Assembly: GCA_947574255.1 (NCBI GenBank)
Contig: CANPJT010000002.1
Coordinates: 273 to 64,272, forward strand
Direction of reading: 5' to 3'
DNA length: 64,000 nt
Source: an uncultured Mycoplasmatota bacterium
GTDB lineage: Bacteria; Bacillota_I; Bacilli_A; RF39; UBA660
Position numbers and translations under genes: made by a program. The notes beneath the pieces are model-generated. The model was not told where the DNA came from, did no database searches, and saw nothing but the letters and a program-made list of their open reading frames with translations. Positions 20,448 through 41,838 of this stretch are shown piece after piece; within the stretch, counting starts at the first letter, position 1; every line of letters starts with the position of its first letter.

Positions 20448-20485
20448 AAAAGTTAAAAAAACAGATGATTAATAACTAATCATCT
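20448..20485 (-). terminator. Intrinsic terminator closing the T4SS/Tad locus
   Basis: Minus-strand RNA forms AGAUGAUUA-guuau-UAAUCAUCU followed by GUUUUUUUAAC. The stem overlaps the T4CP stop codon. Confidence 0.6.
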
Positions 20486-25808: not shown

Positions 25809-27593
25809 CTATAATCCTCCACCTGATCCAAATGAATCTAATTCTTCTTGAGTTACAACAATATTTATTCGCATTCTTCTGTTACCACAAACAAATAGTC
25901 CTTCTCCTTGATTATAATATTTTATACTATCTTTTTCATTATCATTTAAATCAATTAATTTTGATAAATCATCTGTTGCTTGTTTACGAAGTCCCATAAT
26001 TAAATAATAAGAGGCATTATCAAATATTGCTTTACCATGAACTATTACATTAGGTGCAGCAAAATCAGTTGGTTGTTGAGTTATAATGATAGTTCCAGTA
26101 TTGTATTTACGACTACGTCTTTGGATTTGAGCTAAGAATTCAGCGCCAAGTTCATTTTTAGTAGACATAAGAACATGAGCTTCGTCAACACACATAACAG
26201 TATCTATATTTTTATCAAGACAAAGTCCCCAAGCATATTTCAAAATATTAAAAAATAAGGCATTTTTAATATTTTCATCACTATTCATTAGTTCACGAAT
26301 ATTAAAAACAATAAAATCGCTTTGAATATTCAATGTTGTATGACCAGTAAAATAATATCTTAATTCTTTAACAAGTGGTCTAACTTTTAGTTCTAAACGT
26401 TCCATGACATCTCGTTCATGAGTTTGTTCAGGCATCGATAAAATTCGCCCTTTAATAGTTGCATAAACATCATCAAAGGTTGGATAATCACTTGCTTTAA
26501 ATTTAGTAAAGTCAGAGTCATAATCAATTTTATAACGTTTATAAGTATCTTGTACTACTTCACTAAACATGGTTAGTACATCTTCTTCAATTGATGGTGA
26601 GTAATATTTCATGAAAGCTTTTAGTTGTTGTAAAGTTCTAGTTAAAACTGTATAACCTAGACCTTGTTCAATTTCTTCTTCATCAGCATCAACAACAATT
26701 TCAAGAGGATTAATCATTCCAAAATCTCCACCTTTACCAAGATCTAAGAAATCTCCTCCAATACTTCGAGTCATTTCAGCAAGCTCACCTTCAGGATCAA
26801 TACAAATTACTTTATAACCATTTCTTAAATGACTTCTAATTAATAATTTTGCTGCGGTTGATTTTCCACTTCCGCTTGTCCCCAACATAATCATATTAGC
26901 ATTGTTACGATTGTTTTCTTTTTTTATTTTATATAAGAATTGATTAAATAAAACTACTCCTCCAGAGAAATCAACACCAAATAATACACTATTTCCTGGA
27001 TCTTTAATACTATCGAAAATAAAGGGATACATGGCTGCCATCGTAACTGATGGTATTGGTGTTCCTACACGATTTTCAATATCTTGTTTAGGGAATATTG
27101 GAATTATTGATTTTAATGCTTTTTCTTGTTCAAACATTAATGATACACCACGCATACCAAGACCATCTAAATAGTTACGAACTTGCATTTTTTTCATTTC
27201 TAATTCTTCTTTGCTATCAGCAGCTATAAAAACATGCATTTGAAAATCAAAAATACGAGCTTGAGTAGCAGCAAGCATTTGAATAAACTGTTCTAATGAT
27301 TCATAATCTTGTCTAATTCTTTCTTGAATAGTACGATCATTCTCTGTTTGAAATCTTTGCTTTAAATCAGCAATTTCTTTATTTAACATTTTTTGTAATG
27401 TTGAAAATTCAATAGGAATATGTTTTATAGCAATTTTAACACCAGATATATTTGTTAAATTGGCTAAATAGCCTTCTGATATATATTTTGGAAAAGTAAT
27501 TATTGTTAATATTGTACAAAATTTTCCACTAATTACCATTTCCGTTGGTTTAAATTCTATACCTTTTGGGGCTAATTGACTTTTTATGTTCAT
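25809..27593 (-). CDS. VirB4-family T4SS ATPase, C-terminal ~3/4 (ConE/TcpF/PrgJ-like)
   Basis: Walker A MLGTSGSGKST, Walker B VMCVDEAH and IIITQQP. Its start codon overlaps the stop of 27590-28153 in an ATGA arrangement. Confidence 0.85.
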   Translation of the reverse strand: MNIKSQLAPKGIEFKPTEMVISGKFCTILTIITFPKYISEGYLANLTNISGVKIAIKHIPIEFSTLQKMLNKEIADLKQRFQTENDRTIQERIRQDYESLEQFIQMLAATQARIFDFQMHVFIAADSKEELEMKKMQVRNYLDGLGMRGVSLMFEQEKALKSIIPIFPKQDIENRVGTPIPSVTMAAMYPFIFDSIKDPGNSVLFGVDFSGGVVLFNQFLYKIKKENNRNNANMIMLGTSGSGKSTAAKLLIRSHLRNGYKVICIDPEGELAEMTRSIGGDFLDLGKGGDFGMINPLEIVVDADEEEIEQGLGYTVLTRTLQQLKAFMKYYSPSIEEDVLTMFSEVVQDTYKRYKIDYDSDFTKFKASDYPTFDDVYATIKGRILSMPEQTHERDVMERLELKVRPLVKELRYYFTGHTTLNIQSDFIVFNIRELMNSDENIKNALFFNILKYAWGLCLDKNIDTVMCVDEAHVLMSTKNELGAEFLAQIQRRSRKYNTGTIIITQQPTDFAAPNVIVHGKAIFDNASYYLIMGLRKQATDDLSKLIDLNDNEKDSIKYYNQGEGLFVCGNRRMRINIVVTQEELDSFGSGGGL

Positions 27594-28153
27594 TCTGGCA
27601 TCACCGTTCCTAAACTTGTTGGCTTACCGCCATTAAAGAAATTGTCGATAAGCATACGTAAATCATTATTTGATACTTGAGTTGATGTAAGACCACATGT
27701 GGATAGATTTGCAATAAGATTGTGAATTCTTTTTTGAATAGTTTCCATTTTTTTATCCTTGAATAAGATGAAATATTCTGTATCTACAACACTATATTCT
27801 GCACTCATAAACATATTGGCCTTATTAATATCTTGCATTATCAATTTACGCATGGTGCCATTTGAGGCATTGTTATATAAAAGTTGAAGTTGAGATAAAT
27901 AAATATTGATGTCAACTGGTCTATCTGCGACAATTAACCAAAATTCATAATCTATCATGTTATAAAAATTTCTTAAATTATAGATAACATTTTCTTGAGT
28001 TCCACGATCTAAGATAAAGATATTTCTTGGAGTAACTTTGACCCCTGTTACATATTCTCCACTATCTAGTTGAATCATTCCATTTAAGATTTGTTTTACT
28101 GGAATCCAATCTTCTGCATATTTACTAATAACTTTAGCATTTTTATTTTTCAT
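27590..28153 (-). CDS. VirB4 N-terminal-domain-like protein (separate ORF)
   Basis: 187 aa. DWIPVKQILNGMIQLDSGEYVTGVKVTPRNIFILD resembles the N-terminal region that is normally fused to Gram-positive VirB4 ATPases. It is translationally coupled (ATGA) to 25809-27593. Confidence 0.6.
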   Translation of the reverse strand: MKNKNAKVISKYAEDWIPVKQILNGMIQLDSGEYVTGVKVTPRNIFILDRGTQENVIYNLRNFYNMIDYEFWLIVADRPVDINIYLSQLQLLYNNASNGTMRKLIMQDINKANMFMSAEYSVVDTEYFILFKDKKMETIQKRIHNLIANLSTCGLTSTQVSNNDLRMLIDNFFNGGKPTSLGTVMPE

Positions 28154-28454
28154 CGTTTATACACCACCCTTTCCAATAATATCTTTTTCTTCCCATTATG
28201 AATGTTACAATGTTAGTTATTAATTGTAATACATTATGGTAATTTGGAACTGGCATTACTAAGAATGAAGCAATTAGTGCTGGGGATAATATTAATAATA
28301 TTGAGCTAATACTCATTGCAGAATTAAATATAAATAACATTACAAGTGTAAATAAACATCCTGTTGCAAAAATTATTAAATCAATCCATGTAAACCAACC
28401 TAATATTAATTTTGATTTCTTAGAATTAGCGGGAATTAAGTAATTAGTATTCAT
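28143..28454 (-). CDS. VirB3-like/PrgI-family small membrane protein
   Basis: 103 aa with two TM helices, sitting immediately upstream of VirB4. Size, topology and position are as in Gram-positive T4SSs. Confidence 0.6.
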   Translation of the reverse strand: MNTNYLIPANSKKSKLILGWFTWIDLIIFATGCLFTLVMLFIFNSAMSISSILLILSPALIASFLVMPVPNYHNVLQLITNIVTFIMGRKRYYWKGWCINDEK

Positions 28455-28476: not shown

Positions 28477-30531
28477 TTATTTATTATTATTTGCTTCTTG
28501 GCGTTTTTGTGCTTCTTTATATTCAACAGACATTTGATCTCTTCTTAATTGATCTGAAGCTTTCTTTTTTTGATGACTCATACCATCTTTTGTTTGACTA
28601 GCCGCAGTATGAGTGAAATCTACAACTGTACCACTAATACTGTCAATATACTGCCCAGAAAGAGTATCATATTCTACATTTCTTAAACTGCTTCCTTCTA
28701 TCATTTTATATAAATCATCTGCTTCTACAATTCTGTTCGTACTTTTATCAATTATTTGATTTCCTTTTAATTTTAAATTTTCTACCATTGACACATCAAT
28801 CCCGATGTCTTTTGCATATTCTGGATTTTGTTTAGCTATTTGAGCGATATTATACATTGCATATGCGGCAGATTGTGAATTATTTCTAATAGAATCCATT
28901 CTAGACTTTAACATATTTCCTTTTAATTGATCAATTGCAGCAGCTACACTTTGTCCTTCATAAGTTGTTACACCTGACGCTTTTAAAGCTTCGTATTTTT
29001 GCAATTGATTTTTCATCGCATTATAATTAGGATTCTCATAAATTGCCTCATATTCTTTATAGCTATTTTTAAACTCCTCTTCAAATTTAGTCTTTCTTAA
29101 AATACTTGCAGCACCTCCTGTTGCCCAATTTTTAATACCTAAACCACTATCTGCTATATGTCCTGCTAAAACCCCTTTAATTGTTCCACCATGGTTAGCT
29201 TTATAAGATTCTCTTTTATTTCTGTTTTCAATAGTTTGAGTAACTCCTTTACTAGCACTATTTCGCATATCAGTAAAGTTTTTAGCACTTCTTGCTCCAT
29301 ATCCTCCTCTTGCTGCACCTGAAAATCCTCCAGCGACACCACTTAGTGCTCCGCCAAATAAGTTTCTAGCAACACTTCCAGCAGTTACATTTCCTGCTGC
29401 ATTTTTCCAGTTATTTTTGTTTGCCCATTTGTTACTTAAATTTCTCACCATCGATGTTGCTCCTGCACCAATTAAACCACCAGCAACAAAAGCACCACCA
29501 TCTGCTAATTTTTGGCGTACACCAAGTTTTATATTTCCAGCATCTACTCCAATTATTTCGCCAATCAATTTTGGCGCTTGTTTACCAAACGCAAATATAC
29601 CTAAAATGACTATTATTTTGCCAAATAATCCTAATCCCTTTAAATTTATTATATTTGTGAGTATCTGTGAACATAAAAATGCTATTATGAACATTATAAA
29701 TATTCGAACAAATACCTCGAAATAAGTTGCAGACACTTTTTTAACATAATTATCAAAAACACTCTTTTTCTCAGGTATTATTCGCATCATAATTGGAATT
29801 GGAGATATAATTTGATAAAATGCTAATTTTACTACTCTAACTCCCATATCTAAACAAAAAGAGAAAATTACATATACTAAAAAGGCCCCACATAAAGTTC
29901 CTATAAGAGGGGTGTAAGATGCTTCATCTGGATTATCTGCAATAACTTCAGTTGCATATGTTATGTCTAAAAAACTTACTTCTTCTATATCATTAGCAAT
30001 TATCGCCTCTTTTAAATCTCCCCAAGTATCAAAATCTTTATGGCTTATTTCAGCATCTTCTGGTAAGTTTTGAGCAAATGATTCAAAAAGAGTCAATGCT
30101 GTTCTTCTTCCTACAGAAGTTAAGTCATTATTTGTATTTCCAAATACTATTTTATCAATTATACCATCTTCAATTATAATATTTTGAATTCTAAATGCAT
30201 ATGTAAATAAACTAGGTACTATAGCAATTAAAATAAGAGAAATAATTAAATTTGTTACAATTTTACCTGTACCTTTAGTTAAGTCATCAGGATTTACAAG
30301 GGCTTTTAACAATGAATAAGCTAGATAAAATAACATTACTACTCCAATAATAACTAAAAATCGGTTAGCTATTTCTTCATAGACTTTATCTGTTATAAAT
30401 TCTGTACTAGCTAAGGAATAAAAAAGATCATATAATTCACTAATTAGCCAGTAAACTAAAGAATCTAAAAGCATAAAGAAACCATTTAAACCATGAGTAA
30501 AAATATTGCTTAAAATTCCAAGAGTTAGCAT
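28477..30531 (-). CDS. VirB6-like polytopic T4SS membrane protein (ConG/TcpH/TrbL-like)
   Basis: 684 aa with at least 6 hydrophobic helices in the N-terminal ~400 aa. These are followed by Gly-rich stretches (GGLIGAGATS, GGALSGVAGGFSGAARGGYG) and a soluble tail. It sits next to the VirB3/VirB4 genes. Confidence 0.6.
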   Translation of the reverse strand: MLTLGILSNIFTHGLNGFFMLLDSLVYWLISELYDLFYSLASTEFITDKVYEEIANRFLVIIGVVMLFYLAYSLLKALVNPDDLTKGTGKIVTNLIISLILIAIVPSLFTYAFRIQNIIIEDGIIDKIVFGNTNNDLTSVGRRTALTLFESFAQNLPEDAEISHKDFDTWGDLKEAIIANDIEEVSFLDITYATEVIADNPDEASYTPLIGTLCGAFLVYVIFSFCLDMGVRVVKLAFYQIISPIPIMMRIIPEKKSVFDNYVKKVSATYFEVFVRIFIMFIIAFLCSQILTNIINLKGLGLFGKIIVILGIFAFGKQAPKLIGEIIGVDAGNIKLGVRQKLADGGAFVAGGLIGAGATSMVRNLSNKWANKNNWKNAAGNVTAGSVARNLFGGALSGVAGGFSGAARGGYGARSAKNFTDMRNSASKGVTQTIENRNKRESYKANHGGTIKGVLAGHIADSGLGIKNWATGGAASILRKTKFEEEFKNSYKEYEAIYENPNYNAMKNQLQKYEALKASGVTTYEGQSVAAAIDQLKGNMLKSRMDSIRNNSQSAAYAMYNIAQIAKQNPEYAKDIGIDVSMVENLKLKGNQIIDKSTNRIVEADDLYKMIEGSSLRNVEYDTLSGQYIDSISGTVVDFTHTAASQTKDGMSHQKKKASDQLRRDQMSVEYKEAQKRQEANNNK

Positions 30532-30549: not shown

Positions 30550-31638
30550 TTATTTAATATCACAAACACCAAATTCAATACCAGCAAGTTCTAATAAAAC
30601 CTCAAGAAGTGTTGGTAACAAAAATATTAGAACACCAATAATTAATCTTTTACCTAATTTATTAGTTACTTTTTTTATTTCATTTGGATCTTGAGCAGCT
30701 AAAGCTTTGATAAAATCAACAACTGACAAACCAATTATTAAAATTGGAACAGCAAATCTAATCAAAGATAAAATTTGTTTTAATAAAGTACCAAATTTAC
30801 CATTAAAAATATTATCACAATCTATATCATTAGTTTCCAAATCTAAGTCTTCTTTTTCTTCTTTATTAGGATCATCTTTAGAATTTTTAAAAGTACACTT
30901 CCCTTTTCGCCAACGACATTCTTTTCCTTCTTCATCTCTTTCCTTACATTGATCTTTAGTTAAATAATCTGTACAAATAAATAAATTCTTTTTTTCACAT
31001 TTATTTGTTGTATCATTCCAACGACATCTTCCTGAATCAGTAAGTGAAGGACAAGATTCCTTTGTTATATAATCAGCACAAGAAGATGGTCTTTTACAGA
31101 TTTTTTTTTCTGTATCTTTTATACAGACATTCCCTTGAGCATCAGTTTTATTAACACATTCTTCATATGTGTATTCTGTACAACTTCCCTTTTTGTCAAG
31201 AACTTCTTTTGATTCAGTATTTTCTATAATATAAGACTTGTTTTTAATTTTTTTTTGTTGATTTTCTAAAATACTTTTTGAATAAGAAATGTATAATTCT
31301 TTTTTTTCACCAATATTAATTAATGGTATTCCTTTTTTGTAAGAAACTAGAATATAAGTAGGACATAATTCTTTATTTGATGATATTTCTGTAGCTAAAT
31401 AAGAATTTTTAGTTTCTGATGACCATAATCCACAATTAACACTTTTATTAATGCTATTAATGTCAGGCCATTCTTTTATTGTTGCTGAACAATTTAGATT
31501 TTTCTTTTTATCTACAGTAATATTAACGATAACATTTACCCCATTAGAATCATATATACATTTTTTACCTTCTGCTGCTGATACTATTCTTGGATATAAT
31601 ATTATTAATAATAAGAAAATTATTTTAAATTTTTTCAT
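30550..31638 (-). CDS. Secreted Cys-rich protein with a C-terminal VirB2-like two-helix membrane module (paralog 1)
   Basis: Signal peptide (IVSAAEG). Three tandem ~30-aa Cys-rich repeats at aa 153-248. The C-terminus FAVPILIIGLSVVDFIKALAAQDPNEIKKVTNKLGKRLIIGVLIFLLPTLL aligns with 31814-32944 and 34232-34639. Confidence 0.6.
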   Translation of the reverse strand: MKKFKIIFLLLIILYPRIVSAAEGKKCIYDSNGVNVIVNITVDKKKNLNCSATIKEWPDINSINKSVNCGLWSSETKNSYLATEISSNKELCPTYILVSYKKGIPLINIGEKKELYISYSKSILENQQKKIKNKSYIIENTESKEVLDKKGSCTEYTYEECVNKTDAQGNVCIKDTEKKICKRPSSCADYITKESCPSLTDSGRCRWNDTTNKCEKKNLFICTDYLTKDQCKERDEEGKECRWRKGKCTFKNSKDDPNKEEKEDLDLETNDIDCDNIFNGKFGTLLKQILSLIRFAVPILIIGLSVVDFIKALAAQDPNEIKKVTNKLGKRLIIGVLIFLLPTLLEVLLELAGIEFGVCDIK

Positions 31639-31707
31639 AAAATATCCCTACTTTTTTCATTTATTTTTTTAATTATATCAATTTTTTTATAATAATACTA
31701 GTATGAA

Positions 31708-31738
31708 AACAAACTGATTATTAAAAAATCAGTTTGTT
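31708..31738 (-). terminator. Hairpin downstream of 31814-32944 (possible terminator or attenuator)
   Basis: AACAAACUGAU-(9 nt)-AUCAGUUUGUU is a perfect 11-bp stem, but the U-tract is weak. Confidence 0.45.
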
Positions 31739-31813
31739 ACTATTTACCAAAATCTATAATTGTTTATTATTTAAAAAGTACTTTATATGATAATATACAT
31801 ATATTTAATTAAT

Positions 31814-32944
31814 CTATTTATTAATATTACATTTATTAGGTTTAAATAAACAAGTATTACACTTTTTAAAGTTATTTTCTGATTCTGGAAGTAAGTTAAA
31901 TACAAAATTTATTACAGTAGGTAATAAAAATATTGCTACTCCTGTAATTATTCTAGTAGCAAACATATTTGTTGCTTTTTTTACAGCATCTTGACTAGAA
32001 TTCATAATCGCCTTACTAAAATCTAATGATCCCATAATTATTAAAATAATTGGCACAGCAATTTTTACTACCATTAATAAATATCCTATAAAGCGAAAGG
32101 CACTTAATACACCAGTTTGTTTGCATAATGAAGGTATTTTTGTTGATCCTTTTATTATATCTGTAATTTCATCACATTTTATATTTCTATTATTGGGGTA
32201 TTCACAATTCTCATCACATAAATATTCAATATTTTTTTTATCATCTCCACATATGAATTCATAAATATCATCATTATAATGATCAGCGTTTTTAAAAAAT
32301 TCATTATAATCATATGTAGCCCATTTCATTTCTTTAGTTTTTTTATTGTAATAAAAATCTGGACAATTATTAGAAGAAATCATACTACATACACCATTAA
32401 CTTTTGATTCTGATGTTCCATCAGGATAAGTTATAGTACATTTATTACCTTCACCTTCAATTTTTAGCTGTTTATTTCCAATGTTATAAGTACAACTCTT
32501 TTTATTTGAGGTAGGTGTAAATATAGTACATTTTCCTTCACAACTACTTTTATTTTTATTTAATGAAACCAAAACTTCTCCATTATTAATTAACTCATTA
32601 GAAAATTTTATAATTTCTTTTGGCTTACCAGGTTTTAAAACAGCATAAAGTGGACAATCCCATTTATTATTTGAATCTAAAAAATTATAATCGCGCAATT
32701 CTTGATAATCATATTTAGTAAAAGGTAAATATCCAGGATATTGAACAGCATCTGGTTCTATTTCTAGATGATCTGTTTCATTTATTCTAATGTACGTTCC
32801 ATTAGAATACTCACAGTATAAAACTGTACCATTATTATTTGAATTATCTATTTTTATTCCATTTGTTGTAGTTGCTGCAAAAGTATTTGGTGTTAATAAT
32901 AAGAAAACAAACATTATTAAAACAAAATAAAATTCTTTTTTCAT
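31814..32944 (-). CDS. Secreted Cys-rich protein with a C-terminal VirB2-like two-helix membrane module (paralog 2)
   Basis: Signal peptide (TPNTFAATT) and many Cys residues. The C-terminus is KIAVPIILIIMGSLDFSKAIMNSSQDAVKKATNMFATRIITGVAIFLLPTVI. Confidence 0.6.
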   Translation of the reverse strand: MKKEFYFVLIMFVFLLLTPNTFAATTTNGIKIDNSNNNGTVLYCEYSNGTYIRINETDHLEIEPDAVQYPGYLPFTKYDYQELRDYNFLDSNNKWDCPLYAVLKPGKPKEIIKFSNELINNGEVLVSLNKNKSSCEGKCTIFTPTSNKKSCTYNIGNKQLKIEGEGNKCTITYPDGTSESKVNGVCSMISSNNCPDFYYNKKTKEMKWATYDYNEFFKNADHYNDDIYEFICGDDKKNIEYLCDENCEYPNNRNIKCDEITDIIKGSTKIPSLCKQTGVLSAFRFIGYLLMVVKIAVPIILIIMGSLDFSKAIMNSSQDAVKKATNMFATRIITGVAIFLLPTVINFVFNLLPESENNFKKCNTCLFKPNKCNINK

Positions 32945-33015
32945 AAAATCTCCCCAGTTTTTCTATTAGTATTATACCAATGTTTTTCTTTGAAGTAAAA
33001 CATTTCCTATTAATA

Positions 33016-33042
33016 ATTAAAAAAATGCTTATAAAAGCATTT
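33016..33042 (-). terminator. Intrinsic terminator after 33041-34180
   Basis: Minus-strand RNA forms AAAUGCUU-uuau-AAGCAUUU followed by UUUUUAAUU. It overlaps the stop codon. Confidence 0.6.
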
Positions 33043-34180
33043 ATCTAATTTCATATGGTTCCTCTAATGTTCCTTCTCCTGATTTAAATAATATATTTTT
33101 ATTTAGTGCCAAAACATATCGATAATTAGCACCCATAGCTGCTTCATCTGATTCAATATATCCATTATAATTTACATAATATACATCAAAAGTATTTTTC
33201 GTATCACCAGTCGCTGTCCACCAATGATCATCCTCATTTACAAGGTAATTATAGTTTTGACATTCTTCATTAATAGTTGTTAAACAAGTACTATCTAAGC
33301 TAGCATTTAAAAAATCATAAACAGGTAATAAACCAATATATTGTTTTTCTATTATATTACTACATTCGATACTTCCATCTTTTGAGGCATCAACTTCACT
33401 TCTTTTAGCGGCACATATATTAAAGTTTGATAAAAATTCTTGATATTTACTATATTTTGTTTGATATATATCCCTAATATTTGCTAATGCTCTACTTACA
33501 GCAAAATTATTAATTCCTTTTTGACTTTCGCCTTCGGTATTATAACGATCATCCCAATAACCATATTCTGTTTCATCAGTATGTTCAGAATCCAAATAAT
33601 TTTTAATAATTATTATTTGTTCATCTTTATTTATTTTTACAATTCGCCACAATTCTTCAGCAAATTTTAAATAGTTATTAGGGTTTTCTCCACGATATAC
33701 AAGTTCTTCATTCATTTCATATAATCCTTCACCAAATGAAGAAATTTTATTATGACTTTTTAAAATATCACTAAGCTTCTCTGTTTTGTATTCCTTACAA
33801 TTTAAGAAAGCTTGATAATTATAACTACCATCATTATAGTAAACTTTTACTTCTGCATTACATGATTCATCTCTTACATATCTGCTAAACTTTTTAATAT
33901 ATTTATTTTCGATCAACGATGTGTCGTTAATTGTTGCAACTGGTTTATCTTTAGTTGGTAAATTGCTTGGATAATCATTCATATACTTTTGTGACGCTGT
34001 TATAAGTTTTTTTTCTAATTCAACATATGATGTTTTCTTATTTACTGCTTTAGTACTAATAGAAATAACTACTATTATTAAAATCATTACTACTATTACA
34101 CCAACTAAAAAAGTAATTTTTTGTTTATTTATATCATTAAATTTATTTTTTATAGAAGATAATATATCTTTCACTTGCAT
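33041..34180 (-). CDS. Membrane-anchored extracellular protein, distant member of the 17025/63196 family
   Basis: N-terminal TM anchor (ITFLVGVIVVMILIIVVISI). It shares blocks with the two outside paralogs: NPNNYLKFAEELWRIV against DPNNYV(N/S)F..(E/K)(L/K)WRIIGV, WWTATGD against QWTLMPG/QWSITPV, and the C-terminal GEGTLEEPYEI against DGSSTTPFVL/DGSSEKPFIL. Confidence 0.6.
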   Translation of the reverse strand: MQVKDILSSIKNKFNDINKQKITFLVGVIVVMILIIVVISISTKAVNKKTSYVELEKKLITASQKYMNDYPSNLPTKDKPVATINDTSLIENKYIKKFSRYVRDESCNAEVKVYYNDGSYNYQAFLNCKEYKTEKLSDILKSHNKISSFGEGLYEMNEELVYRGENPNNYLKFAEELWRIVKINKDEQIIIIKNYLDSEHTDETEYGYWDDRYNTEGESQKGINNFAVSRALANIRDIYQTKYSKYQEFLSNFNICAAKRSEVDASKDGSIECSNIIEKQYIGLLPVYDFLNASLDSTCLTTINEECQNYNYLVNEDDHWWTATGDTKNTFDVYYVNYNGYIESDEAAMGANYRYVLALNKNILFKSGEGTLEEPYEIR

Positions 34181-34231
34181 TCACCTATAATAGAATATAA
34201 CATAAGGCAAAAAAAAAAGCAATTATTGCTT

Positions 34232-34639
34232 CTATTTCCATGCATTATCTGCTTTTCCTTTACATTCTGTACCTCTTGGACTTGTAATACAAGATTTACA
34301 AATACTATAATCTTTTTCTACCTTACTAAAATCAGATACAAATCCCATAACCAAACCAATAATTGTTGGAATTAAAAAGATTGCTATAGCTGCTACGGCT
34401 CTCATCGCTAAAGATGTAGTAGCTTTTTTAACTTCATCAGATTTACTAGCAACTACGGCTTTTCCTAAATCTAAAATTCCCATAACAATTAAAATTACTG
34501 GTATTACAATTTTAAATGCTAATAAAACATAACCAACTAATTGCCAAATATTAGCAGTATTAGCACAAAATCCATTATTTTCTGATCCTATATTTACCAA
34601 TGTTAAAAATATATCCATAAGTATTAACCTCTCTCTCAT
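34232..34639 (-). CDS. Small VirB2-like (TrbC/pilin-like) two-helix membrane protein (paralog 3, minimal version)
   Basis: 135 aa. The core is KIVIPVILIVMGILDLGKAVVASKSDEVKKATTSLAMRAVAAIAIFLIPTII, a two-TM hairpin with a charged loop, followed by a short Cys-containing tail. Confidence 0.6.
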   Translation of the reverse strand: MRERLILMDIFLTLVNIGSENNGFCANTANIWQLVGYVLLAFKIVIPVILIVMGILDLGKAVVASKSDEVKKATTSLAMRAVAAIAIFLIPTIIGLVMGFVSDFSKVEKDYSICKSCITSPRGTECKGKADNAWK

Positions 34640-34681
34640 TCATAAACTTATTTTATAGTTTATTTATTATATTGTCAAGTT

Positions 34682-35686
34682 TTATGACTTAAATATGTTA
34701 AATAGTTTACTATTCTTACTATCTTCTCCTGATTCTTCAAATCTTACAAAACCTAGAGAAATTAGAAAATTATTTAAAATTTTGTGTTGATCTAACTTAT
34801 CATCTAGATAAGGAATATTAAAAAATACTTTACTTTTTGATTCATATTCAAAATCTTTAATATCTTTATCATTTAAAACACTTCTATTTAGAACAATCTT
34901 TTTGTCTTTTAATTTCTCGAATGTACGTTTATCTTTACGAATTAATTTATTTAATTTAATTAAACCAGGTTCAATTAAATATATGACTTCAGTACAAGAA
35001 CTTATGCTACCACGATCATTTAAATCAACTAATATTACTTCTGTGTCACTATTAGTGGCTATAAAAGCAGGAAGATCAAGGCTAGAAGTTGTTTTTAAAG
35101 TTTTATCATTAAAATAAATAAAATCATGTTCATCAACTTCTACAGCTATACATTTATATTTTTTCTCTAAATGCTTTTTCATTAAATATGTTAGAGTTGT
35201 TGATCCAGCATGCTCTGTAACATTTTTAATTCCAATCACACGAAGTCCTAATTTGTTATAATCAGTTGATGATGCAGTTGTGGTTACTTCTGGATTTGTT
35301 ACACTATTTAATTGATGATATTGAGCTACATCTTTATAAATATTAGGATTATCTATTAAAAATTTTATAGAATCTATATTTCTAGTAAAATTATATATTC
35401 CCATTGAAACTAAAGCAGATAAGTATCTTGGTGAATTAACGATTTCAGAATCATCTAATAAAATTATAATATTACTAACATCCATGCTTAATGATAAATT
35501 TTGAATAGTTGCTACATCTTGATAGTTTCTTATAGCAGTTATATCTAAAATCATTTTATTGAAATAAAAATTAGTAAACTGACTAACTAAGTCTTCTACC
35601 TCAAATTCTCCATTAATACTTTTTATAATATCAATATCTAATGTTGCAAGTAGAGATTGATATTTATTTGATACAATTACATTCAT
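34682..35686 (-). CDS. TadZ/CpaE-like protein (pseudo-receiver + degenerate MinD/ParA-type P-loop domain)
   Basis: The N-terminal ~110 aa are receiver-like (MNVIVSN...ILDITA...IIILLD). The C-terminal domain aligns by eye to MinD/ParA (RVIGIKNVTEHAGSTTLTYLMKKHL...CIAVEVD...VILVDLND), but the Walker A Lys is absent (AGSTT where GKT/S is expected). Confidence 0.45.
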   Translation of the reverse strand: MNVIVSNKYQSLLATLDIDIIKSINGEFEVEDLVSQFTNFYFNKMILDITAIRNYQDVATIQNLSLSMDVSNIIILLDDSEIVNSPRYLSALVSMGIYNFTRNIDSIKFLIDNPNIYKDVAQYHQLNSVTNPEVTTTASSTDYNKLGLRVIGIKNVTEHAGSTTLTYLMKKHLEKKYKCIAVEVDEHDFIYFNDKTLKTTSSLDLPAFIATNSDTEVILVDLNDRGSISSCTEVIYLIEPGLIKLNKLIRKDKRTFEKLKDKKIVLNRSVLNDKDIKDFEYESKSKVFFNIPYLDDKLDQHKILNNFLISLGFVRFEESGEDSKNSKLFNIFKS

Positions 35687-35700
35687 AAATTTTCCACCTC

Positions 35701-36189
35701 TTATTCTGATATTGCTCTTAAGCCATCATTGCTTTTTATAATATCATTAGTTGTTCCATTAATTCTAAATTTAAATAAATCTCCTATTACTGGTAGGTTA
35801 AAATAAAAGAATATTTCAACTTTGTAATACGATTTTTCATCATTGTTATTTGATGGTGATTTTACTTTTTGAATACAATAATAGTATTTTCGAGAATTAT
35901 TTGAAACTTTTTCACTTGTTGAACTATTTAAATTAGAAACCCCATAACTCCCTCTGGGACATGTGTTTGTAACATTATATCCACTACTTTTTAAATAATT
36001 ATTTATTAACTCAATACTTCCATTGTTTCCTGAAGTAAATCCTTCTTTTTTTTCTATCATAGTTAGAATATCATTTTTCACTTGGAATGCTTTACTATAA
36101 TTTAGCGTTAAAGCTAGAAATGCTACAAAAAGGAGCATAAAAACAATTACTAATTGCATTATCCAAGTTCCACCTATTGCTTCTCTCAT
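35701..36189 (-). CDS. TadE/TadF-like pseudopilin candidate (paralog B)
   Basis: MREAIGGTWIMQLVIVFMLLFVAFLAL, a short polar leader followed by a hydrophobic helix. It is a paralog of 36198-36767 (shared NYSKAF.VKN, NYLK.S.Y, YY.V..F.....P.....F.F...G.T). Confidence 0.5.
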   Translation of the reverse strand: MREAIGGTWIMQLVIVFMLLFVAFLALTLNYSKAFQVKNDILTMIEKKEGFTSGNNGSIELINNYLKSSGYNVTNTCPRGSYGVSNLNSSTSEKVSNNSRKYYYCIQKVKSPSNNNDEKSYYKVEIFFYFNLPVIGDLFKFRINGTTNDIIKSNDGLRAISE

Positions 36190-36197
36190 ACTATCAC

Positions 36198-36767
36198 CTA
36201 TCCAACTATTTTATTTGCAGGAACATCACGACATCTTTTAGGATTCCCAATTTTTTGACCATTTTTATACTCTTGACACATACTTTCTGGTCCTCGATAA
36301 TAGCCATCTTTAGTGAATGAATTACTTAATACTTTCGTATCACCTGTTACTTGAAAGTTAAACATTTCATTAAATATTGGTAAATCTAATTGATAGAATA
36401 CTACTATGCGATAATAAGCCATCTCTGGTAATTCTGAGGGTGTTCTGGTTAATTGCTGTTTTATACAAAAAGCTGGATTACGATTATCTTTTTCTCCATC
36501 ACGATTTATTCCTATATAATTATCTGGACAATTACCAGTAGTACGATAAGATGTTTCTTTTAAATAATTAGTAATTTTCTTAATAGCTTCATCATCTTTA
36601 GGATTATCTAAATTTAAGCCTTCTGATCTTTCAATAGTATTTACTATCATATTTTTAACGTTAAAAGCTTTGGAATGATTAATTGATAAACACAAAAAAG
36701 CTGTAAATAACAAAACAAAAGCTATAACTATTTGAAATAACCAAGTTCCTCCGATTGCCTCTCTCAC
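36198..36767 (-). CDS. TadE/TadF-like pseudopilin candidate (paralog A)
   Basis: MREAIGGTWLFQIVIAFVLLFTAFLCL N-terminus; a paralog of 35701-36189. Confidence 0.5.
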   Translation of the reverse strand: MREAIGGTWLFQIVIAFVLLFTAFLCLSINHSKAFNVKNMIVNTIERSEGLNLDNPKDDEAIKKITNYLKETSYRTTGNCPDNYIGINRDGEKDNRNPAFCIKQQLTRTPSELPEMAYYRIVVFYQLDLPIFNEMFNFQVTGDTKVLSNSFTKDGYYRGPESMCQEYKNGQKIGNPKRCRDVPANKIVG

Positions 36768-36783
36768 TATATCACTTCCTCAT

Positions 36784-37023
36784 TTAACCTTTCCAAACGC
36801 ATTTAAAGCTACTTCCTTGCTGACGACCATTTTGGTCATATAAAGCACATGTGGCCATATTGCTATTGCCATCTCTTTTGCAGACAGCAGCATTACATTT
36901 ACTTTTGGAGTCTAAATTATTACTAATCATCGGCCAGATTGTAGTATAGAAAAAAGCCGCTAGGACTCCTACCGCTACAACTACTACAACAGTCATATTT
37001 AATTCTCCAGTGGCTTCTTTCAT
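36784..37023 (-). CDS. Flp-like small pilin candidate 1
   Basis: 79 aa. MKEATGELNMTVVVVVAVGVLAAFFYTTIWPMI is followed by a short variable Cys-containing C-terminus. A strong RBS precedes it, and it lies just downstream of the TadB/TadC-like genes. Confidence 0.6.
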   Translation of the reverse strand: MKEATGELNMTVVVVVAVGVLAAFFYTTIWPMISNNLDSKSKCNAAVCKRDGNSNMATCALYDQNGRQQGSSFKCVWKG

Positions 37024-37072
37024 ATTCTATAACTCCCTTATTTTCTTTTCTCTTTTAATTTTTCAGAATATA

Positions 37073-37348
37073 TTATCCGCATTGTTTTGATCTAGTAACA
37101 TAACTATTTCCTTTTTTCACTTTAAAAGTACATGAATATTTTCCTTGGGCATTAGCAGCAGTACAACTTACATAATCTGGATCTCCACTATTACCCATCG
37201 TATTACCTGCTCCAGTATTACAAGCTGTTGTTCCTTGTAAGTTTGTTTGGATTGCTGGCCATACAAATGCATAGAAGAATGCTGCTACTGCAGCTATTGC
37301 TACTACAGTAATTACTGTCATATTTAATTCTCCAGTTGCCTCTTTCAT
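37073..37348 (-). CDS. Flp-like small pilin candidate 2
   Basis: 91 aa. MKEATGELNMTVITVVAIAAVAAFFYAFVWPAI is followed by a variable Cys-containing C-terminus. RBS GAGGAGGA. Confidence 0.6.
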   Translation of the reverse strand: MKEATGELNMTVITVVAIAAVAAFFYAFVWPAIQTNLQGTTACNTGAGNTMGNSGDPDYVSCTAANAQGKYSCTFKVKKGNSYVTRSKQCG

Positions 37349-37408
37349 TTTTTATTTTCCTCCTCTTTTTTAAGGATTAGTAGCAATAGCTGCAAATATA
37401 CTTATATA

Positions 37409-37556
37409 TTAATTACAAGTACATGTTTCAGTTTCAGCATTATAAGTTCCTTGTCCATTTGGACATTGATTAGCACAAGTATTATTGCCTAAGCCTGTTT
37501 TAATTGCTGGCCATACAAATGCATAGAAGAATGCTGCTACTGCAGAATATGCTACT
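37409..37556 (-). pseudogene. 5'-truncated third pilin copy (no start codon, leader missing, novel C-terminal region)
   Basis: My minus-strand translation is (E)VAYSAVAAFFYAFVWPAIKTGLGNNTCANQCPNGQGTYNAETETCTCN*. nt 37503-37545 are identical to 37251-37293 in pilin 2. The in-frame upstream sequence is TAA AAA ATA GGG AGG GAA, with no ATG, GTG or TTG. It is not in the ORF track. Confidence 0.7.
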
Positions 37557-37621
37557 TCCCTCCCTATTTTTTACTTTATTATTATATCATTTTTTATTTA
37601 TTATATCAATAATTTATATTA

Positions 37622-38410
37622 TTATGTTCCCATTAGCATTAATACCGCAAATATTAAGAGAACCATTACTCCAAGACCAGTAGTAACTAACATACTCATG
37701 GTTTTGGATTCCATTTTTTCTAGACGTTGCTTATACTTTAAATCACGAGCTTTTTGAGTCAAGTTTGAAATAGTTTTAGAAAAAGCAAGTAATTGATCTT
37801 GTTTATGTTCTTGTCTACCTAAACTTAAACGATATAGTAAACGCATCATACGCATCGAATCTCTTACAGGATATTGTTTAGCAAAATTAACATATGGATC
37901 GATTTTATCATTACCAGAGTTAATTTCATTAATAAGTTCATGTAATCCTTCTTTAAATATTGCAGGTGCATCATCAATAGATTTTCCAATTGCTACTGGT
38001 ACAGTATAATGTTGAATTAAAATCTCTAAGCTTTTTAAGTAATGTGGTAACATTGCATCTATTTCGTGAAGATGCTTTTTATAATAATTTCTAATATTAA
38101 AATAATCTAATTTAAATATTAATACTCCACCTAATACCGAAAATAAAATTGTAACATAATTTAATTTTGAAATAAAACAGAACATTAATACTACTGCTAC
38201 AATTAAACCATTTCTTATTCGTTTATTAAATAAAGCATCTCCATTTACACCGTCACCATATTTTGCTTTAACATAAAAATCCCAATCTTCTTCTTTTAAC
38301 TTTTTAAAATAGACTTCGTTATCAGCAATAAATTTGTTAGTGTTTATTCTTCCAGTATAGCTCATCATAAATATAATTATTATACCAATTATTAAAATTT
38401 CTATAGTCAT
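37622..38410 (-). CDS. TadC-like platform protein (type II secretion system F-domain family)
   Basis: 262 aa with TadC-like topology: an N-terminal TM, a TM pair at ~aa 68-100, a cytoplasmic helical domain and a C-terminal TM. It has a 1-nt overlap with the upstream TadB-like gene. Confidence 0.55.
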   Translation of the reverse strand: MTIEILIIGIIIIFMMSYTGRINTNKFIADNEVYFKKLKEEDWDFYVKAKYGDGVNGDALFNKRIRNGLIVAVVLMFCFISKLNYVTILFSVLGGVLIFKLDYFNIRNYYKKHLHEIDAMLPHYLKSLEILIQHYTVPVAIGKSIDDAPAIFKEGLHELINEINSGNDKIDPYVNFAKQYPVRDSMRMMRLLYRLSLGRQEHKQDQLLAFSKTISNLTQKARDLKYKQRLEKMESKTMSMLVTTGLGVMVLLIFAVLMLMGT

Positions 38411-39303
38411 TATTCTACCCCCAAATCTTCATTATAATATTTTTCACCTGTCACTAAAAAATAACTATTTATTATGATGATTAAATGGAGAATTAATTGA
38501 ACATACCATATTTCTAATAATTCTATATAACTATCTGTTCCGAGTAAAAATTGCATAGCCATTACAAGTAAAAACAATGCTAAGCCAAATGTAATAAATT
38601 TACGATGAAAGTTTTTTCTATCTACTTGATCACGATAAACTCCTTCTACTAAAGCATCGATATCTTGAGCCATATTTTCTAAAGCTTCACCAGAATCTTT
38701 AGCACCTTCTTTAGTAATTTGAAGAAATAATTGATTCATATTTTTAACCATATAAAATGGATATTTTTCATTAAAAAATTCTACTGACTCATCTATTGTA
38801 CCATTTTGGTAAGACATCTCTATCATGGTTTTTACATCTTGCAAAACTGGATCTTCTAATATTCCAGAGTCTCTAACACCTTCTAGTGATTTAACAAAAC
38901 TTTGAGTAGTTGTAAATTCCATAATAACATTAGTTGTATATATTTGAATTTGTTCAAATATATATTCGCTATATATTTTTTGATATCTTAAATATGTTAA
39001 ATATGGAATAAAAGCTATTGCAACTCCAGCATATATCAGGGTAAAAATTATGTTATAAAAGTAAAGATATGAGATGCCACCTGCAACTGCTCCAAACATA
39101 ATTATTTGAGTTGCATATTCTCTAGTTGAGAAGTCTTGACCTAAACTTTTAACTTTTTCTCTTACTTCTTTATAACTATAAGGTGCATATTTATTATAAA
39201 TATCACTTACTTGAGTAATAAAAAATCGATAAACATTTTTGCCGTTATTTTGGCGGTATGATATCACATATATTGCAATTATAATTAATATAATTAATTC
39301 CAT
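38410..39303 (-). CDS. TadB-like platform protein (type II secretion system F-domain family)
   Basis: 297 aa with an N-terminal TM, a TM pair at ~aa 65-105, a cytoplasmic domain and a C-terminal TM pair. It sits immediately downstream of the secretion ATPase. Confidence 0.55.
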   Translation of the reverse strand: MELIILIIIAIYVISYRQNNGKNVYRFFITQVSDIYNKYAPYSYKEVREKVKSLGQDFSTREYATQIIMFGAVAGGISYLYFYNIIFTLIYAGVAIAFIPYLTYLRYQKIYSEYIFEQIQIYTTNVIMEFTTTQSFVKSLEGVRDSGILEDPVLQDVKTMIEMSYQNGTIDESVEFFNEKYPFYMVKNMNQLFLQITKEGAKDSGEALENMAQDIDALVEGVYRDQVDRKNFHRKFITFGLALFLLVMAMQFLLGTDSYIELLEIWYVQLILHLIIIINSYFLVTGEKYYNEDLGVE

Positions 39304-39327
39304 TTTGCACCAACTCTCTTTATACTT

Positions 39328-40512
39328 TTATAGGGTTTCTACTGCATTTTTTACAACATTTGGTTGAATTTGAGTTTGTGATTGTTGTATTTTTTGTTCA
39401 GGGGCAGTAATTGTCATATTTAGGGTACTATTAGATTCTTCACTATCTGATCTAAATATGTTATCTGGAAGAGTTACTCCTTGAATTGATAAATAATCTC
39501 TTAAATTTTTAGAGGGATTATTTAAGGTGTATTTGCCATCCAATGTTTTTTTAAAAATGGTATTTGCTTTAGGATTATTGTCTTCATCAACATAAAATTC
39601 ACAGATTTCCATTATTTCTCTTTGAAATCTTCCTAATTCTTTACTCATATACCCTTTAACATATATACCAATTTGTACATAACGATGAATCGTTGTTAAA
39701 AATTGTTCAACATCTAGGTTTGATTCTAACAAACTATACATACGCATTGGTATGGATGAAGCTTTATCAGCATGAATAGTAGATATAATATGGTGTCCAG
39801 AAGATATTGAATTACGTACAGCAAGTACAGCTTCGGCACTACGAACTTCAGATAATAAAATCCAAATAGGATTTTGACGCATACAAGTTACTAATACTTC
39901 AGAATAGGAAGCAATGTTATTGGTTTTCATTGCTACTATATCTCGATGAGGAAATATGCGGTCTAAATGTAATTCTAGAGTATCTTCTATTGTTATTATT
40001 TTCTCATTCTCTTTAGTGGTACTAGCTAAGTATTTAACTAGTTCAGTTTTACCAGAACCAGTTTCTCCACTAACAATAATATTAGCATGACCTTGAACAC
40101 ACGCTAATAGAAAATCAAGTAAATCTTCAGAAACGTATTTTTCATTAATTAATTTTTCTTTATTTAATCTAATTTTAGCAGGAGTTTTACGTATCAAACA
40201 AGCTATTCCATTAGTTGCTATTGATTCATGAACAAAGTTAAGACGAAGTTCAGTTGACTCAGCATCTAAGAAAGGATGAGCCATATTAAACGTTTTTCCC
40301 ATTACATTAGAACATTGAAACGCCAATTTTTCTAATAAAGTATTATTTATTTCTGGTCTTTCAATTTTGAATACACCACGAGAAAGAGTTTTTAACCATA
40401 CTTGTCCACCATTACTATATGAAATATCGGTGACATCATCAAGTTTTAAAAATTCATCAAGAGGACCGAAGTCCAATTGAGAAAATATAGCATCATTATC
40501 CATTAAAGTCAC
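39328..40512 (-). CDS. Type II/IV secretion-family ATPase (CpaF/TadA/VirB11 clade)
   Basis: Walker A VSGETGSGKTE, Asp/Walker B region KIITIEDTLEL, LLSEVRSAEA and His box IISTIHA. The N-terminal region (LDEFLKLDDVTDISYSNGGQVWL) is typical of this family. Confidence 0.85.
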   Translation of the reverse strand: MTLMDNDAIFSQLDFGPLDEFLKLDDVTDISYSNGGQVWLKTLSRGVFKIERPEINNTLLEKLAFQCSNVMGKTFNMAHPFLDAESTELRLNFVHESIATNGIACLIRKTPAKIRLNKEKLINEKYVSEDLLDFLLACVQGHANIIVSGETGSGKTELVKYLASTTKENEKIITIEDTLELHLDRIFPHRDIVAMKTNNIASYSEVLVTCMRQNPIWILLSEVRSAEAVLAVRNSISSGHHIISTIHADKASSIPMRMYSLLESNLDVEQFLTTIHRYVQIGIYVKGYMSKELGRFQREIMEICEFYVDEDNNPKANTIFKKTLDGKYTLNNPSKNLRDYLSIQGVTLPDNIFRSDSEESNSTLNMTITAPEQKIQQSQTQIQPNVVKNAVETL

Positions 40513-40526
40513 CCTCTTTTGTATTT

Positions 40527-41372
40527 TTATTCATTATTTACATTATTATTATTGTTGTTGTTATTATTTGTATTAGTTGAAGTTGTTTCATTTTGTGGTA
40601 AAGTTACACTTTGAGCCAAAATGAAATCTCTTATTACATCACTAGATACTAATGTATCACCAGGATTAGCGCTATAAGATGCATTTCTTGGTACTGGAAC
40701 TATTTCAATTGAATGAGATGTTATATATCCAGCTTTCATTAAAAGTAAGTACATATCATCAGGAACAGCAAATAATAATTCTTCTGGTGTACGACTTTCA
40801 ACATTTGTTTCAAAAACATGATTTCCATTACCATCTTTAACAGCTAAAACTTTAATACTTTCAATTAATTTTCCAAACATTACTTTTCCAGTATCATCTA
40901 CACCTTTAAAGTATAAGTCAATATAGTTGTTAGGATAAATTGAATTACCATATGTTGAATGTAAATTAACATTTAAACTATATATAGTATATCCGTCTGG
41001 AATATCGGCAAATGCACTATCTGGCATTTCATTTGATTCAATTACTTGTGATTTATAAAACATACCATTTTCTGGGATAGTTGTTCCATATGATACATAT
41101 TTATTTATTAATTGATTAGCATCAATAATTAAATTATCACTTTCATTTACTACATTACGAGAAACCTCTCTGTAACCTATCATATCACTCGTTATTTGAG
41201 TACGAGATGATATTTCTTCTTTGGCATAAGGAACACTAACTGGGGTTGTTGCTTGTTTTACACGATAATTATATCCAATATATAATACCAAAATACAAAG
41301 TATCACACCTATAATTGTTACAGTGTTCTTATTTCCTAAAAATCTTTTTATTGTTGTTAAAATATTTCCCAT
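40527..41372 (-). CDS. CpaB/RcpC-like pilus assembly protein (TM + SAF-like domain)
   Basis: N-terminal TM anchor. PVSVPYAKEEISSRTQITSDMIGYREVSRNVV resembles a SAF/CpaB N-domain. It sits directly upstream of the ATPase, as in tad loci. The protein ends in a poly-Asn tail. Confidence 0.5.
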   Translation of the reverse strand: MGNILTTIKRFLGNKNTVTIIGVILCILVLYIGYNYRVKQATTPVSVPYAKEEISSRTQITSDMIGYREVSRNVVNESDNLIIDANQLINKYVSYGTTIPENGMFYKSQVIESNEMPDSAFADIPDGYTIYSLNVNLHSTYGNSIYPNNYIDLYFKGVDDTGKVMFGKLIESIKVLAVKDGNGNHVFETNVESRTPEELLFAVPDDMYLLLMKAGYITSHSIEIVPVPRNASYSANPGDTLVSSDVIRDFILAQSVTLPQNETTSTNTNNNNNNNNNVNNE

Positions 41373-41399
41373 TTTTTTCTTCCTCCATTTTATTCATTT

Positions 41400-41819: not shown

Positions 41820-41838
41820 TAGTTATTTTCCCCCATTT

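Follow-up and report, generated by a model that had tools for sequence, protein, structure and literature searches.

Type IV secretion systems (T4SSs) of monoderm, Gram-positive bacteria are described as lacking VirB2 homologues (PMC4027160), and in the reviews up to December 2025 the Patescibacteria are the only exception (PMC4027160, PMC12857230). In Patescibacteria, VirB2-like genes identified by PF04956 and PF18895 stand in arrays of 2-11 divergent members near a T4SS with TrsD, VirB4, VirB3 and VirB6 that mostly has no relaxase (PMC12102498, PMC12857230). The VirB2-like array genes of Southlakia epibionticum are essential (PMC10633639), and VirB6 is proposed, in the model for R388, as the platform on which VirB2 assembles (PMC12857230). 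Whether the Patescibacteria pilins arrived together with the monoderm system or were recruited from another source was left undecided by the survey that described them (PMC12102498). Here we analyse three paralogous genes in a 64-kb stretch of DNA (the window; contig CANPJT010000002.1, positions 273 to 64,272) from an uncultured Mycoplasmatota bacterium. All three encode the same two-helix C-terminal module, which in two of them is fused to a large Cys-rich ectodomain. Our reading, to which we give a probability of roughly 55 %, is that they form a Patescibacteria-type PF18895 pilin array in a monoderm, chromosomal T4SS of the MPF-FATA type, with the short copy as the main subunit and the long copies displaying domains.

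The C-terminal module and its family

The open reading frames (ORFs) at 30550-31638, 31814-32944 and 34232-34639 are all present on the minus strand. The original prediction, made from the sequence letters, stated that their C-termini align without gaps, and this is borne out: the C-terminal ~75-110 residues form a gap-free alignment, with BLASTP E-values of 3e-13 (362 aa versus 376 aa), 6e-24 (135 aa versus 376 aa) and 4e-08 (135 aa versus 362 aa). Judged by these alignments, the C-terminal modules of the three ORFs are homologous, and a chance likeness of hydrophobic segments is ruled out because of the pairwise E-values and the size of the family described below. Invariant across the three modules are, among others, a P, D..KA, KK.T, an R and IFL.PT, and each module has one Cys before helix 1 and one after helix 2. 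Hydropathy gives two strong hydrophobic segments near the C-terminus of each protein, as well as a signal-like hydrophobic N-terminal segment in both long copies. The long copies have 18 and 16 Cys and the short copy has 4, in line with the prediction of a signal peptide and a Cys-rich N-terminal domain in both long paralogues.

There are two subtypes of the module, which occupy fixed positions in the array and are told apart by the tail. Type A, to which the short copy (here 34232-34618) and the middle copies (here 31814-32944) belong, has the tail C..C...P..C. In type B a single Cys lies 3-5 residues from the C-terminus, and the gene is usually the last one before a VirB6-like gene (here 30550-31638).

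In the AlphaFold2 model of the short copy the helices span residues 22-57 and 60-93 (predicted local distance difference test score, pLDDT, 79.6), and in that of the 376-aa copy the module helices span residues 277-314 and 318-351 (whole-model pLDDT 82). Over the hairpin helices the pLDDT is 80-94, and the hydropathy peaks agree. Models and hydropathy together give the build of a PF18895 protein, i.e. ~70 residues with two membrane helices and a short turn. The turn is the most conserved part of the module and has a mean of 5.75 K+R and a net charge of +2.0, as compared with -1.8 for the N-flank and -1.7 for the C-tail. Following this positive-inside charge pattern, the hairpin ends are placed outside and the turn in the cytoplasm, which agrees with the signal-like N-termini of the long copies. 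The ectodomains and both hairpin ends are thereby predicted to face outward and the K/R-rich turn to face the cytoplasm. This is the topology of an exported propilin (ends out, basic loop in), and it places the ectodomains outside the cell, as the original prediction expected. Even across 150 diverse relatives there is little or no variation in one Cys immediately ahead of helix 1 and in 1-3 Cys immediately behind helix 2, and these conserved Cys at both helix ends probably form a disulfide staple of the outer hairpin ends.

The Pfam family PF18895 (T4SS_pilin) has a profile of 71 positions and a gathering score of 26.6 bits. The short copy matches this profile at 20.5-20.7 bits (E 4.6e-4, profile positions 4-71) and the 362-aa copy at 16 bits (profile positions 2-70), both below the cut-off, and the 376-aa copy has no PF18895 match in the Pfam scan. 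Among the relatives, PF18895 is matched by 33 of 44 close ones (E <= 0.01, best E 5e-7) and by 43 of 150 diverse representatives (E <= 0.001, best E 1.1e-7). It is the sole Pfam family recurring across the relatives, and a precomputed PF18895 match is recorded on eight orthologues. As the relatives match and the copies in the window stay under the threshold, the latter belong to PF18895 solely via transitive homology. On this profile evidence the module is, at the family level, a divergent, large and uncharacterised branch of PF18895.

A profile of the module was searched against 1.84 billion cluster representatives (50 % identity), yielding 10,196 representatives at E <= 0.001 and 5,802 at E <= 1e-10. 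Within the best 150, 62 are of 100-149 aa and 69 of at least 200 aa, and nearly all of the long members listed there have a C-terminal module, a signal-like N-terminus and many Cys. The combination of a signal peptide, a variable Cys-rich ectodomain and a C-terminal module accounts for about half of the best 150. Most ectodomains are without a Pfam match, and GDSL lipase, esterase or C39-like peptidase domains are seen in a few relatives. The original prediction called the architecture unfamiliar from characterised T4SSs. In the literature searched we too found no description of pilin-like hairpins fused to swappable Cys-rich surface domains, but the architecture is not rare, being common in metagenomes.

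The original prediction had named VirB2/TrbC as the type of pilin. A T4SS pilin family is what was found, though not the canonical one: PF04956 (TrbC/VirB2) has no match at E 0.1 in the window copies, and none among the 44 or the 150 relatives. TrwL of plasmid R388 (PF04956 E 1.3e-19) was used as the canonical reference, and 120 of its relatives were aligned as a family profile. With hhalign, the module profiles reached a probability of 0.1 % against TrwL alone and 0.25 % against the 120-sequence family profile. Pilins are known to diverge past sequence recognition between T4SS classes (PMC4027160). The label 'VirB2-like' as used here rests on PF18895 membership, topology and gene context, not on a demonstrated link to canonical VirB2.

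Matches to other families are faint. The NCBIfam scan of the window proteins gave nothing for the three paralogues, including no match at E 0.1 to NF045849, the 'Mbov_0395 family pilin-like conjugal transfer protein'. This model is matched weakly by 7 of the 44 relatives (best E 1.7e-3, far under the curated cut-offs), and a weak echo of the MAG4940 family C-terminus, likewise from Mycoplasma integrative and conjugative elements, is seen in 11 of the 44. The short copy has faint matches to PF16943 (CagC; E 0.058) and PF13400 (Tad; E 0.009). Side matches of the module to Frizzled, 7tm, Tad and DUF families in Pfam are sporadic and were treated as noise of transmembrane composition. A profile search of PDB sequences with the module returned helices of rhodopsin, chemokine and other G-protein-coupled receptors and Shaker-type or other channels only, all with E > 0.1, and these were rejected as a generic resemblance of two transmembrane segments with a loop in between. 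Foldseek with the short-copy model gave no match in the PDB at E <= 0.001, two-helix hairpins being poorly discriminated by such a search.

The array, its T4SS context and related loci

The window has a GC content of 25 % and carries nearly all its genes on the minus strand. The array lies directly upstream of a T4SS gene set, in agreement with the predicted T4SS context. The adjoining gene (28477-30531, minus strand) encodes a VirB6-like polytopic membrane protein, assigned by synteny and by NCBIfam matches to pLS20_p028 (E 1.2e-8) and Mbov_0396 (E 3.8e-8), both below the cut-off. It is followed, all on the minus strand, by genes for a VirB3-like PrgI/TcpE protein (28143-28454), a TraC-like/TrsD-like protein that corresponds to the N-terminal part of VirB4 (27590-28153; PF26593 TraC-like recorded on orthologues), the VirB4 ATPase (25809-27593), a CHAP/NlpC-P60 cell-wall hydrolase (23463-25787), a 233-aa protein (22793-23494) and a VirD4-type coupling protein (20476-22656). 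VirB4 is thus split, with the PrgI/VirB3-like protein, the TraC-like N-terminal part and the ATPase encoded by three consecutive ORFs. The gene set of the MPF-FATA type (VirB4, VirD4-type, VirB6-like, VirB3/PrgI-like and hydrolase) is complete in one cluster. The strongest matches in this cluster are T4SS-DNA_transf (E 2.6e-53) and P-loop_TraG/AAA_10 (E 1e-13); those to PrgI, TcpE, CHAP, NlpC and pLS20_p028/Mbov_0396 are weaker.

No relaxase, integrase or replication gene was found among the 50 window ORFs scanned, which are most of those of at least 90 aa in the 64 kb. The block of T4SS genes and of the Tad pilus genes described below, at ~20.4-45.3 kb, lies between housekeeping genes, with TrpS, UppP, PBP5 and RmuC on one side and FtsW and TyrS on the other. 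A tblastn search with the short protein against the 72,556 plasmids of PLSDB gave no match. From its gene content the locus looks chromosomal and not obviously mobile; a mobile plasmid or an integrative and conjugative element (ICE) is not supported, given the lack of a relaxase or integrase in the scanned ORFs and the housekeeping flanks.

A scan of GTDB species representatives gave 491 stretches encoding a relative. The best 80 of the 491 and four further loci were analysed (84 in total), their ORFs being labelled with a hidden Markov model of the module and with the proteins of the window. Almost all of the best 80 are from gut metagenome-assembled genomes labelled uncultured Bacilli, Tenericutes or Candidatus Ventrenecus. 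The recurrent gene order is (Tad genes), TadZ-like, short copy, (379-aa gene), 1-7 long copies, VirB6-like, PrgI-like, TraC-like and VirB4, where brackets denote genes that may be missing. Complete arrays have 2-6 copies, and arrays ending at the edge of a locus have up to 7-8. The array reaches a VirB6-like gene in 38 of the 44 informative loci, and the context of PF18895 genes, i.e. arrays of divergent paralogues by VirB4, VirB3 and VirB6, is found in the window and in these 38. In 35 related loci a Tad cluster is joined to the Gram-positive-type T4SS. Among the loci whose upstream sequence extends for 5 kb or more, 21 have no Tad genes. Most of these retain the array, frequently just behind pyruvate kinase, so that it is with the T4SS core, and not with the Tad cluster, that the array travels. 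The more distant locus L086 (10001-14284) has a 486-aa long copy with 23 Cys and a truncated 99-aa copy, then a VirB6-like gene with no VirB3 or VirB4 genes after it and a UvrD-type helicase downstream. It may be a decaying or rearranged system.

The short copy opens with an acidic N-tail of ~25 aa, in which one Cys is invariant, and continues with helix 1, the K/R-rich loop, helix 2 and the C..C...P..C tail. Its longest ORF runs to 34639, and the original prediction gave it as a minimal copy of 135 aa. It is indeed module-only, but the gene most likely starts at the ATG at 34618 and encodes 128 aa (34232-34618, minus strand), since a Shine-Dalgarno sequence, GAGAGAGG, lies ahead of this ATG at 34636-34627, the database gene call is also of 128 aa and the orthologues start with MDIF... 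Ahead of the gene is a sigma-70-like promoter, TTGACA-17-TAAAAT (34650-34678, minus strand), with 11 of 12 matching positions. A promoter-like TTGAC(A/T)-17-TAnAAT (at least 10 of 12) is found at an equal upstream distance in 82 of 82 related loci and in 13 of 252 random windows. On the 3' side is a small terminator-like hairpin with a run of 10 U (34210-34237, minus strand), weak when taken alone (z -1.3); downstream of the short gene, 82 of 83 related loci have a hairpin with a T-run, as against 58 of 252 controls. By this pattern of conservation the short copy is a single-gene transcription unit with its own promoter and terminator.

The 376-aa long copy (31814-32944, minus strand) is of type A and has a signal-like N-terminus, a beta-rich ectodomain at ~25-270 with conserved Cys, the module at 277-351 (DNA 31892-32116) and the C..C...P..C tail. 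Of its 17 database relatives, 16 align over 70 % or more of its length, and the ectodomain Cys are conserved. The mean identity among its orthologues is 52 % in the module versus 36 % in the ectodomain. Foldseek with the model of this protein gave no match in the PDB at E <= 0.001, and a Pfam match to PA-IIL (E 0.086) is not significant.

The 362-aa long copy (30550-31638, minus strand) is of type B, with a signal-like N-terminus, an ectodomain, the module at ~279-353 (DNA 30580-30804) and a single Cys four residues from the C-terminus. Its ectodomain contains three tandem four-Cys repeats of ~35 aa at residues 153-248 (DNA 30895-31182), spaced 6-11 residues apart. These repeats score 25.1 bits against Paramecium_SA, for which the cut-off is 21.2. 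A kinship with that family was rejected, as the match probably reflects convergent periodic Cys spacing and not common ancestry.

In the related loci, the module ends no more than 40 residues from the C-terminus in 170 of 176 long copies, and 173 of the 176 have a signal-like N-terminus. The Cys content of the ectodomains in this set is 2.7 % as compared with 0.9 % in neighbouring proteins, and the number of Cys is even in 138 of the 176. The original prediction suggested that homologues be surveyed for N-terminal domain swapping, and such swapping is real. In L007, the closest locus, the flanking genes are 73-95 % identical over the full length, and the counterpart of the 376-aa protein has only its last 106 residues in common, at 80 % identity, with an unrelated ectodomain. 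The comparison of L007 with the window indicates that this is a clean replacement of an ectodomain cassette with its breakpoint at the start of the module.

Between the short copy and the 376-aa gene lies a gene for a 379-aa protein (33041-34180, minus strand) in which an N-terminal membrane anchor is joined to an ectodomain and the module is lacking. A homologue is present in 27 related loci; the gene is an accessory one that entered the array within a single sub-clade. The protein ends with ...(S/G)G.G(T/S)...(D/E)PY... The same ending is found on large exported proteins of other loci, namely L005 (91-1302), L061 (5940-7370 and 14619-16274) and L064 (123-1346).

According to the original prediction, each long paralogue is followed by its own hairpin. 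This is correct for the 376-aa gene, where a terminator-like hairpin at 31708-31738 (minus strand; -12.7 kcal/mol, z -4.9) separates it from the 362-aa gene. The other hairpin, given as 33016-33042, was misassigned. It is a terminator-like hairpin with a U-run at 33015-33050 (minus strand; -11.8 kcal/mol, z -3.6) which overlaps the stop of the 379-aa gene, and as transcription runs from high to low coordinates it belongs to that stop and not to a paralogue. The 362-aa gene has no hairpin, its stop (ending at 30550) being 18 nt ahead of the VirB6-like start at 30531.

A complete Tad-type pilus cluster (34682-45323, minus strand) lies directly upstream of the array. It encodes a TadZ-like protein, two TadE-like pseudopilins, TadB/C-like proteins, a TadA ATPase, an RcpC/CpaB-like protein, a DUF5411 protein and two Flp-like prepilins (36784-37023 and 37073-37348), both starting with MKEATGELNMTV. 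Also in the cluster are a 914-aa protein without a Pfam match and a 246-aa protein. Divergent from the head of the cluster is a gene for a membrane-anchored thioredoxin-like protein with a CSHC motif (45437-45892, plus strand), and the distant locus L003 has a Thioredoxin/PedC-like gene at the equivalent position (354-818). The thioredoxin-like protein may be an oxidase for the exported Cys-rich domains. Elsewhere, the window of this small-genome, low-GC gut bacterium carries a gene for a CotZ-like spore-coat protein (48128-48577, minus strand) and a gene for a 513-aa protein with a C-terminal sortase domain (3371-4912, plus strand).

Assembly model and alternative explanations

If the three genes form a pilin array, each protein would insert as a membrane hairpin of two ~35-residue helices, and the hairpin would be the unit handled by the inner-membrane machinery of VirB6-like, VirB3-like and VirB4 proteins. 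The hairpins could then assemble into a pilus- or stalk-like oligomer crossing the cell wall, of which the short copy would probably be the abundant core subunit. In the long copies a Sec signal peptide would export the variable disulfide-rich ectodomain while it is still attached to the hairpin, and these copies may join the oligomer as minor subunits showing exchangeable domains for contact or adhesion. The type B copy, whose gene lies by that of the VirB6-like protein, may have a special role at the VirB6-like platform. Since the window holds peptidoglycan genes (PBP5, FtsW and UppP) and a wall hydrolase gene, a membrane-tethered domain would stay under the wall unless raised on an oligomer, which mildly favours assembly.

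Several observations weigh against a pilin array of this kind. The window's own copies are under the PF18895 gathering cut-off (20.7 and 16 bits, with no match for the 376-aa copy), the PF04956 scan and hhalign gave no sequence or profile likeness of the module to canonical VirB2/TrbC, and the PDB sequence search and Foldseek gave generic helical matches only. To our knowledge no filament has been seen for any PF18895 protein, so that 'pilin' is itself a prediction. The short copy has no classical signal peptide, only the ~25-aa acidic N-tail, and a bulky 250-aa domain on every subunit would be sterically hard to fit in a helical filament of the VirB2 type. The adjacent, complete Tad pilus cluster could supply adhesion without a T4SS pilus. 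The genomic context has exceptions as well. In 6 of the 44 informative loci no VirB6-like gene was found in the 5-8 kb of downstream sequence at hand. In four loci the short copy lacks T4SS genes within 8 kb: that of L079 (7983-8345) lies behind a Tad cluster, and those of L011 (8004-8390), L061 (7983-8363) and L064 (1464-1871) stand alone amid housekeeping genes yet keep promoter and terminator. L022 and L023 have, after the short copy, a homologue of the 379-aa gene and a 1267-1529-aa ORF, beyond which the contig ends. For the short copies without T4SS genes, either the T4SS is elsewhere in the genome or the short protein has an independent role.

Part of this evidence could also be read as describing a hairpin that does not polymerise and serves as a membrane anchor or docking tag. 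The long proteins would then surround the T4SS as tethered adhesins or as proteins for recipient recognition or exclusion, possibly held by the VirB6-like protein, and the short copy would be a small integral channel component like TraB of pIP501. This is the main rival reading, although we consider it less probable than a pilin array. The missing link of the module to canonical VirB2 fits it, as do the Tad pilus cluster next to the array and the faint CagC match of the short copy (PF16943, E 0.058). TraB, which has two helices and resembles CagC, is required for transfer but is not counted among the pilins (PMC9083827), and Gram-positive T4SSs are thought to rely on adhesins (PMC4027160). However, the short copy, which is the most conserved member, has nothing to anchor and yet its expression signals are the strongest; conservation within the module peaks at the cytoplasmic turn, which would be unusual in a passive anchor; and a tethered 250-aa domain would lie under a cell wall that is seemingly made. 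The short copy could also belong to the neighbouring Tad-type pilus system instead of the T4SS. In its favour, the short copy comes directly after a TadZ-like gene here as well as in 35 related loci, a Tad cluster precedes it in L079, and it has the faint PF13400 match (E 0.009). A role in the Tad system is improbable, because the Tad cluster already has Flp-like pilins and TadE-like pseudopilins, the short copy is homologous to long copies that abut the VirB6-like gene, the recurrent family is PF18895, and the array persists in most of the 21 loci that have no Tad genes despite an upstream sequence of 5 kb or more. Least probable of all is that the long proteins are secreted polymorphic effectors or toxins with a C-terminal hairpin that inserts into the membrane of a target cell. 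The ectodomains are variable and swappable, and a few relatives have lipase, esterase or C39-like peptidase domains, as one would expect of toxins, but the Sec signal-like N-termini and stop-transfer type of hairpin speak against it, no immunity-like partner genes were seen, most ectodomains lack an enzymatic signature and the short copy has no payload.

A PF18895 pilin array can be extended to a bolder proposal, which we offer tentatively and regard as rather unlikely in its full form: a modular, T4SS-dependent pilus of the VirB2 type passing through the Gram-positive wall of uncultured, small-genome gut bacteria labelled Bacilli or Tenericutes, with a shaft of hairpins, paralogues with interchangeable ectodomains as tip or side adhesins, and a function in contact or exchange rather than in classical conjugation. 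It would be the Firmicute counterpart or source of the essential T4SS of Patescibacteria. Should the hairpins assemble, a secretion machine would here vary its contact surface in a way that is new, and this would help in studying the interactions of abundant, uncultured gut Bacilli with other cells.

Comparison with described systems

The module resembles canonical pilins of the VirB2/TrbC/TrwL type (PF04956) in being a small two-helix hairpin with its ends outside and a basic cytoplasmic or lumenal loop, and in having its gene just ahead of the VirB3, VirB4 and VirB6 genes. VirB2 and TrbC are cyclised head to tail, and the disulfide staple predicted here would be a similar closing of the hairpin ends. 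Unlike these pilins, the module shows no sequence or profile likeness to PF04956, the short copy lacks a long cleaved leader and the host is monoderm. We know of no ectodomain fusions in canonical VirB2/TrbC/TrwL pilins. Arrays of paralogues, as seen here, are also found for the pilins of Bartonella Trw (PMC12857230).

TraB of pIP501 and CagC (PF16943) offer a comparison within Gram-positive T4SSs. TraB is likewise a small two-helix membrane protein and is essential for transfer (PMC9083827). It differs from the short copy in its cleaved signal sequence and kinked second helix, and it has neither ectodomain versions nor arrays; the similarity of the short copy to CagC is not significant. In the Mycoplasma ICE, the gene of Mbov_0395 lies just upstream of those of an Mbov_0396-like membrane protein and an Mbov_0397-like VirB4, which is the arrangement of the array, and both of these models match the window neighbours weakly. 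Mbov_0395 itself (NF045849) is not matched by the window copies at E 0.1, and the weak matches of 7 of the 44 relatives are far below the cut-offs.

The closest resemblance is to the T4SS of Patescibacteria such as Southlakia epibionticum and Nanosynbacter lyticus TM7x. Common to both are the PF18895 signal and tandem divergent paralogues by VirB6-like, VirB3-like, TrsD-like and VirB4 genes of an MPF-FATA-related system, with TrsD and VirB4 split. Both are chromosomal and occur in organisms that also have a type IV pilus system, and, as in most Patescibacteria clusters, which are relaxase-less, no relaxase was found in the window ORFs scanned. The locus differs in that its host is labelled Bacilli or Tenericutes, a VirD4-type coupling protein is encoded within the cluster, the module comes in two subtypes tied to position, and the short copy is conserved as a transcription unit of its own. 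Furthermore, most members of the array are fused to Cys-rich ectodomains of 100-500 aa, which are unmentioned in the Patescibacteria literature compared. The locus bears on the origin of the Patescibacteria pilins, as the same family, the same type of array and the same core of split VirB4, VirB3 and VirB6 are found in bacteria labelled Bacilli.

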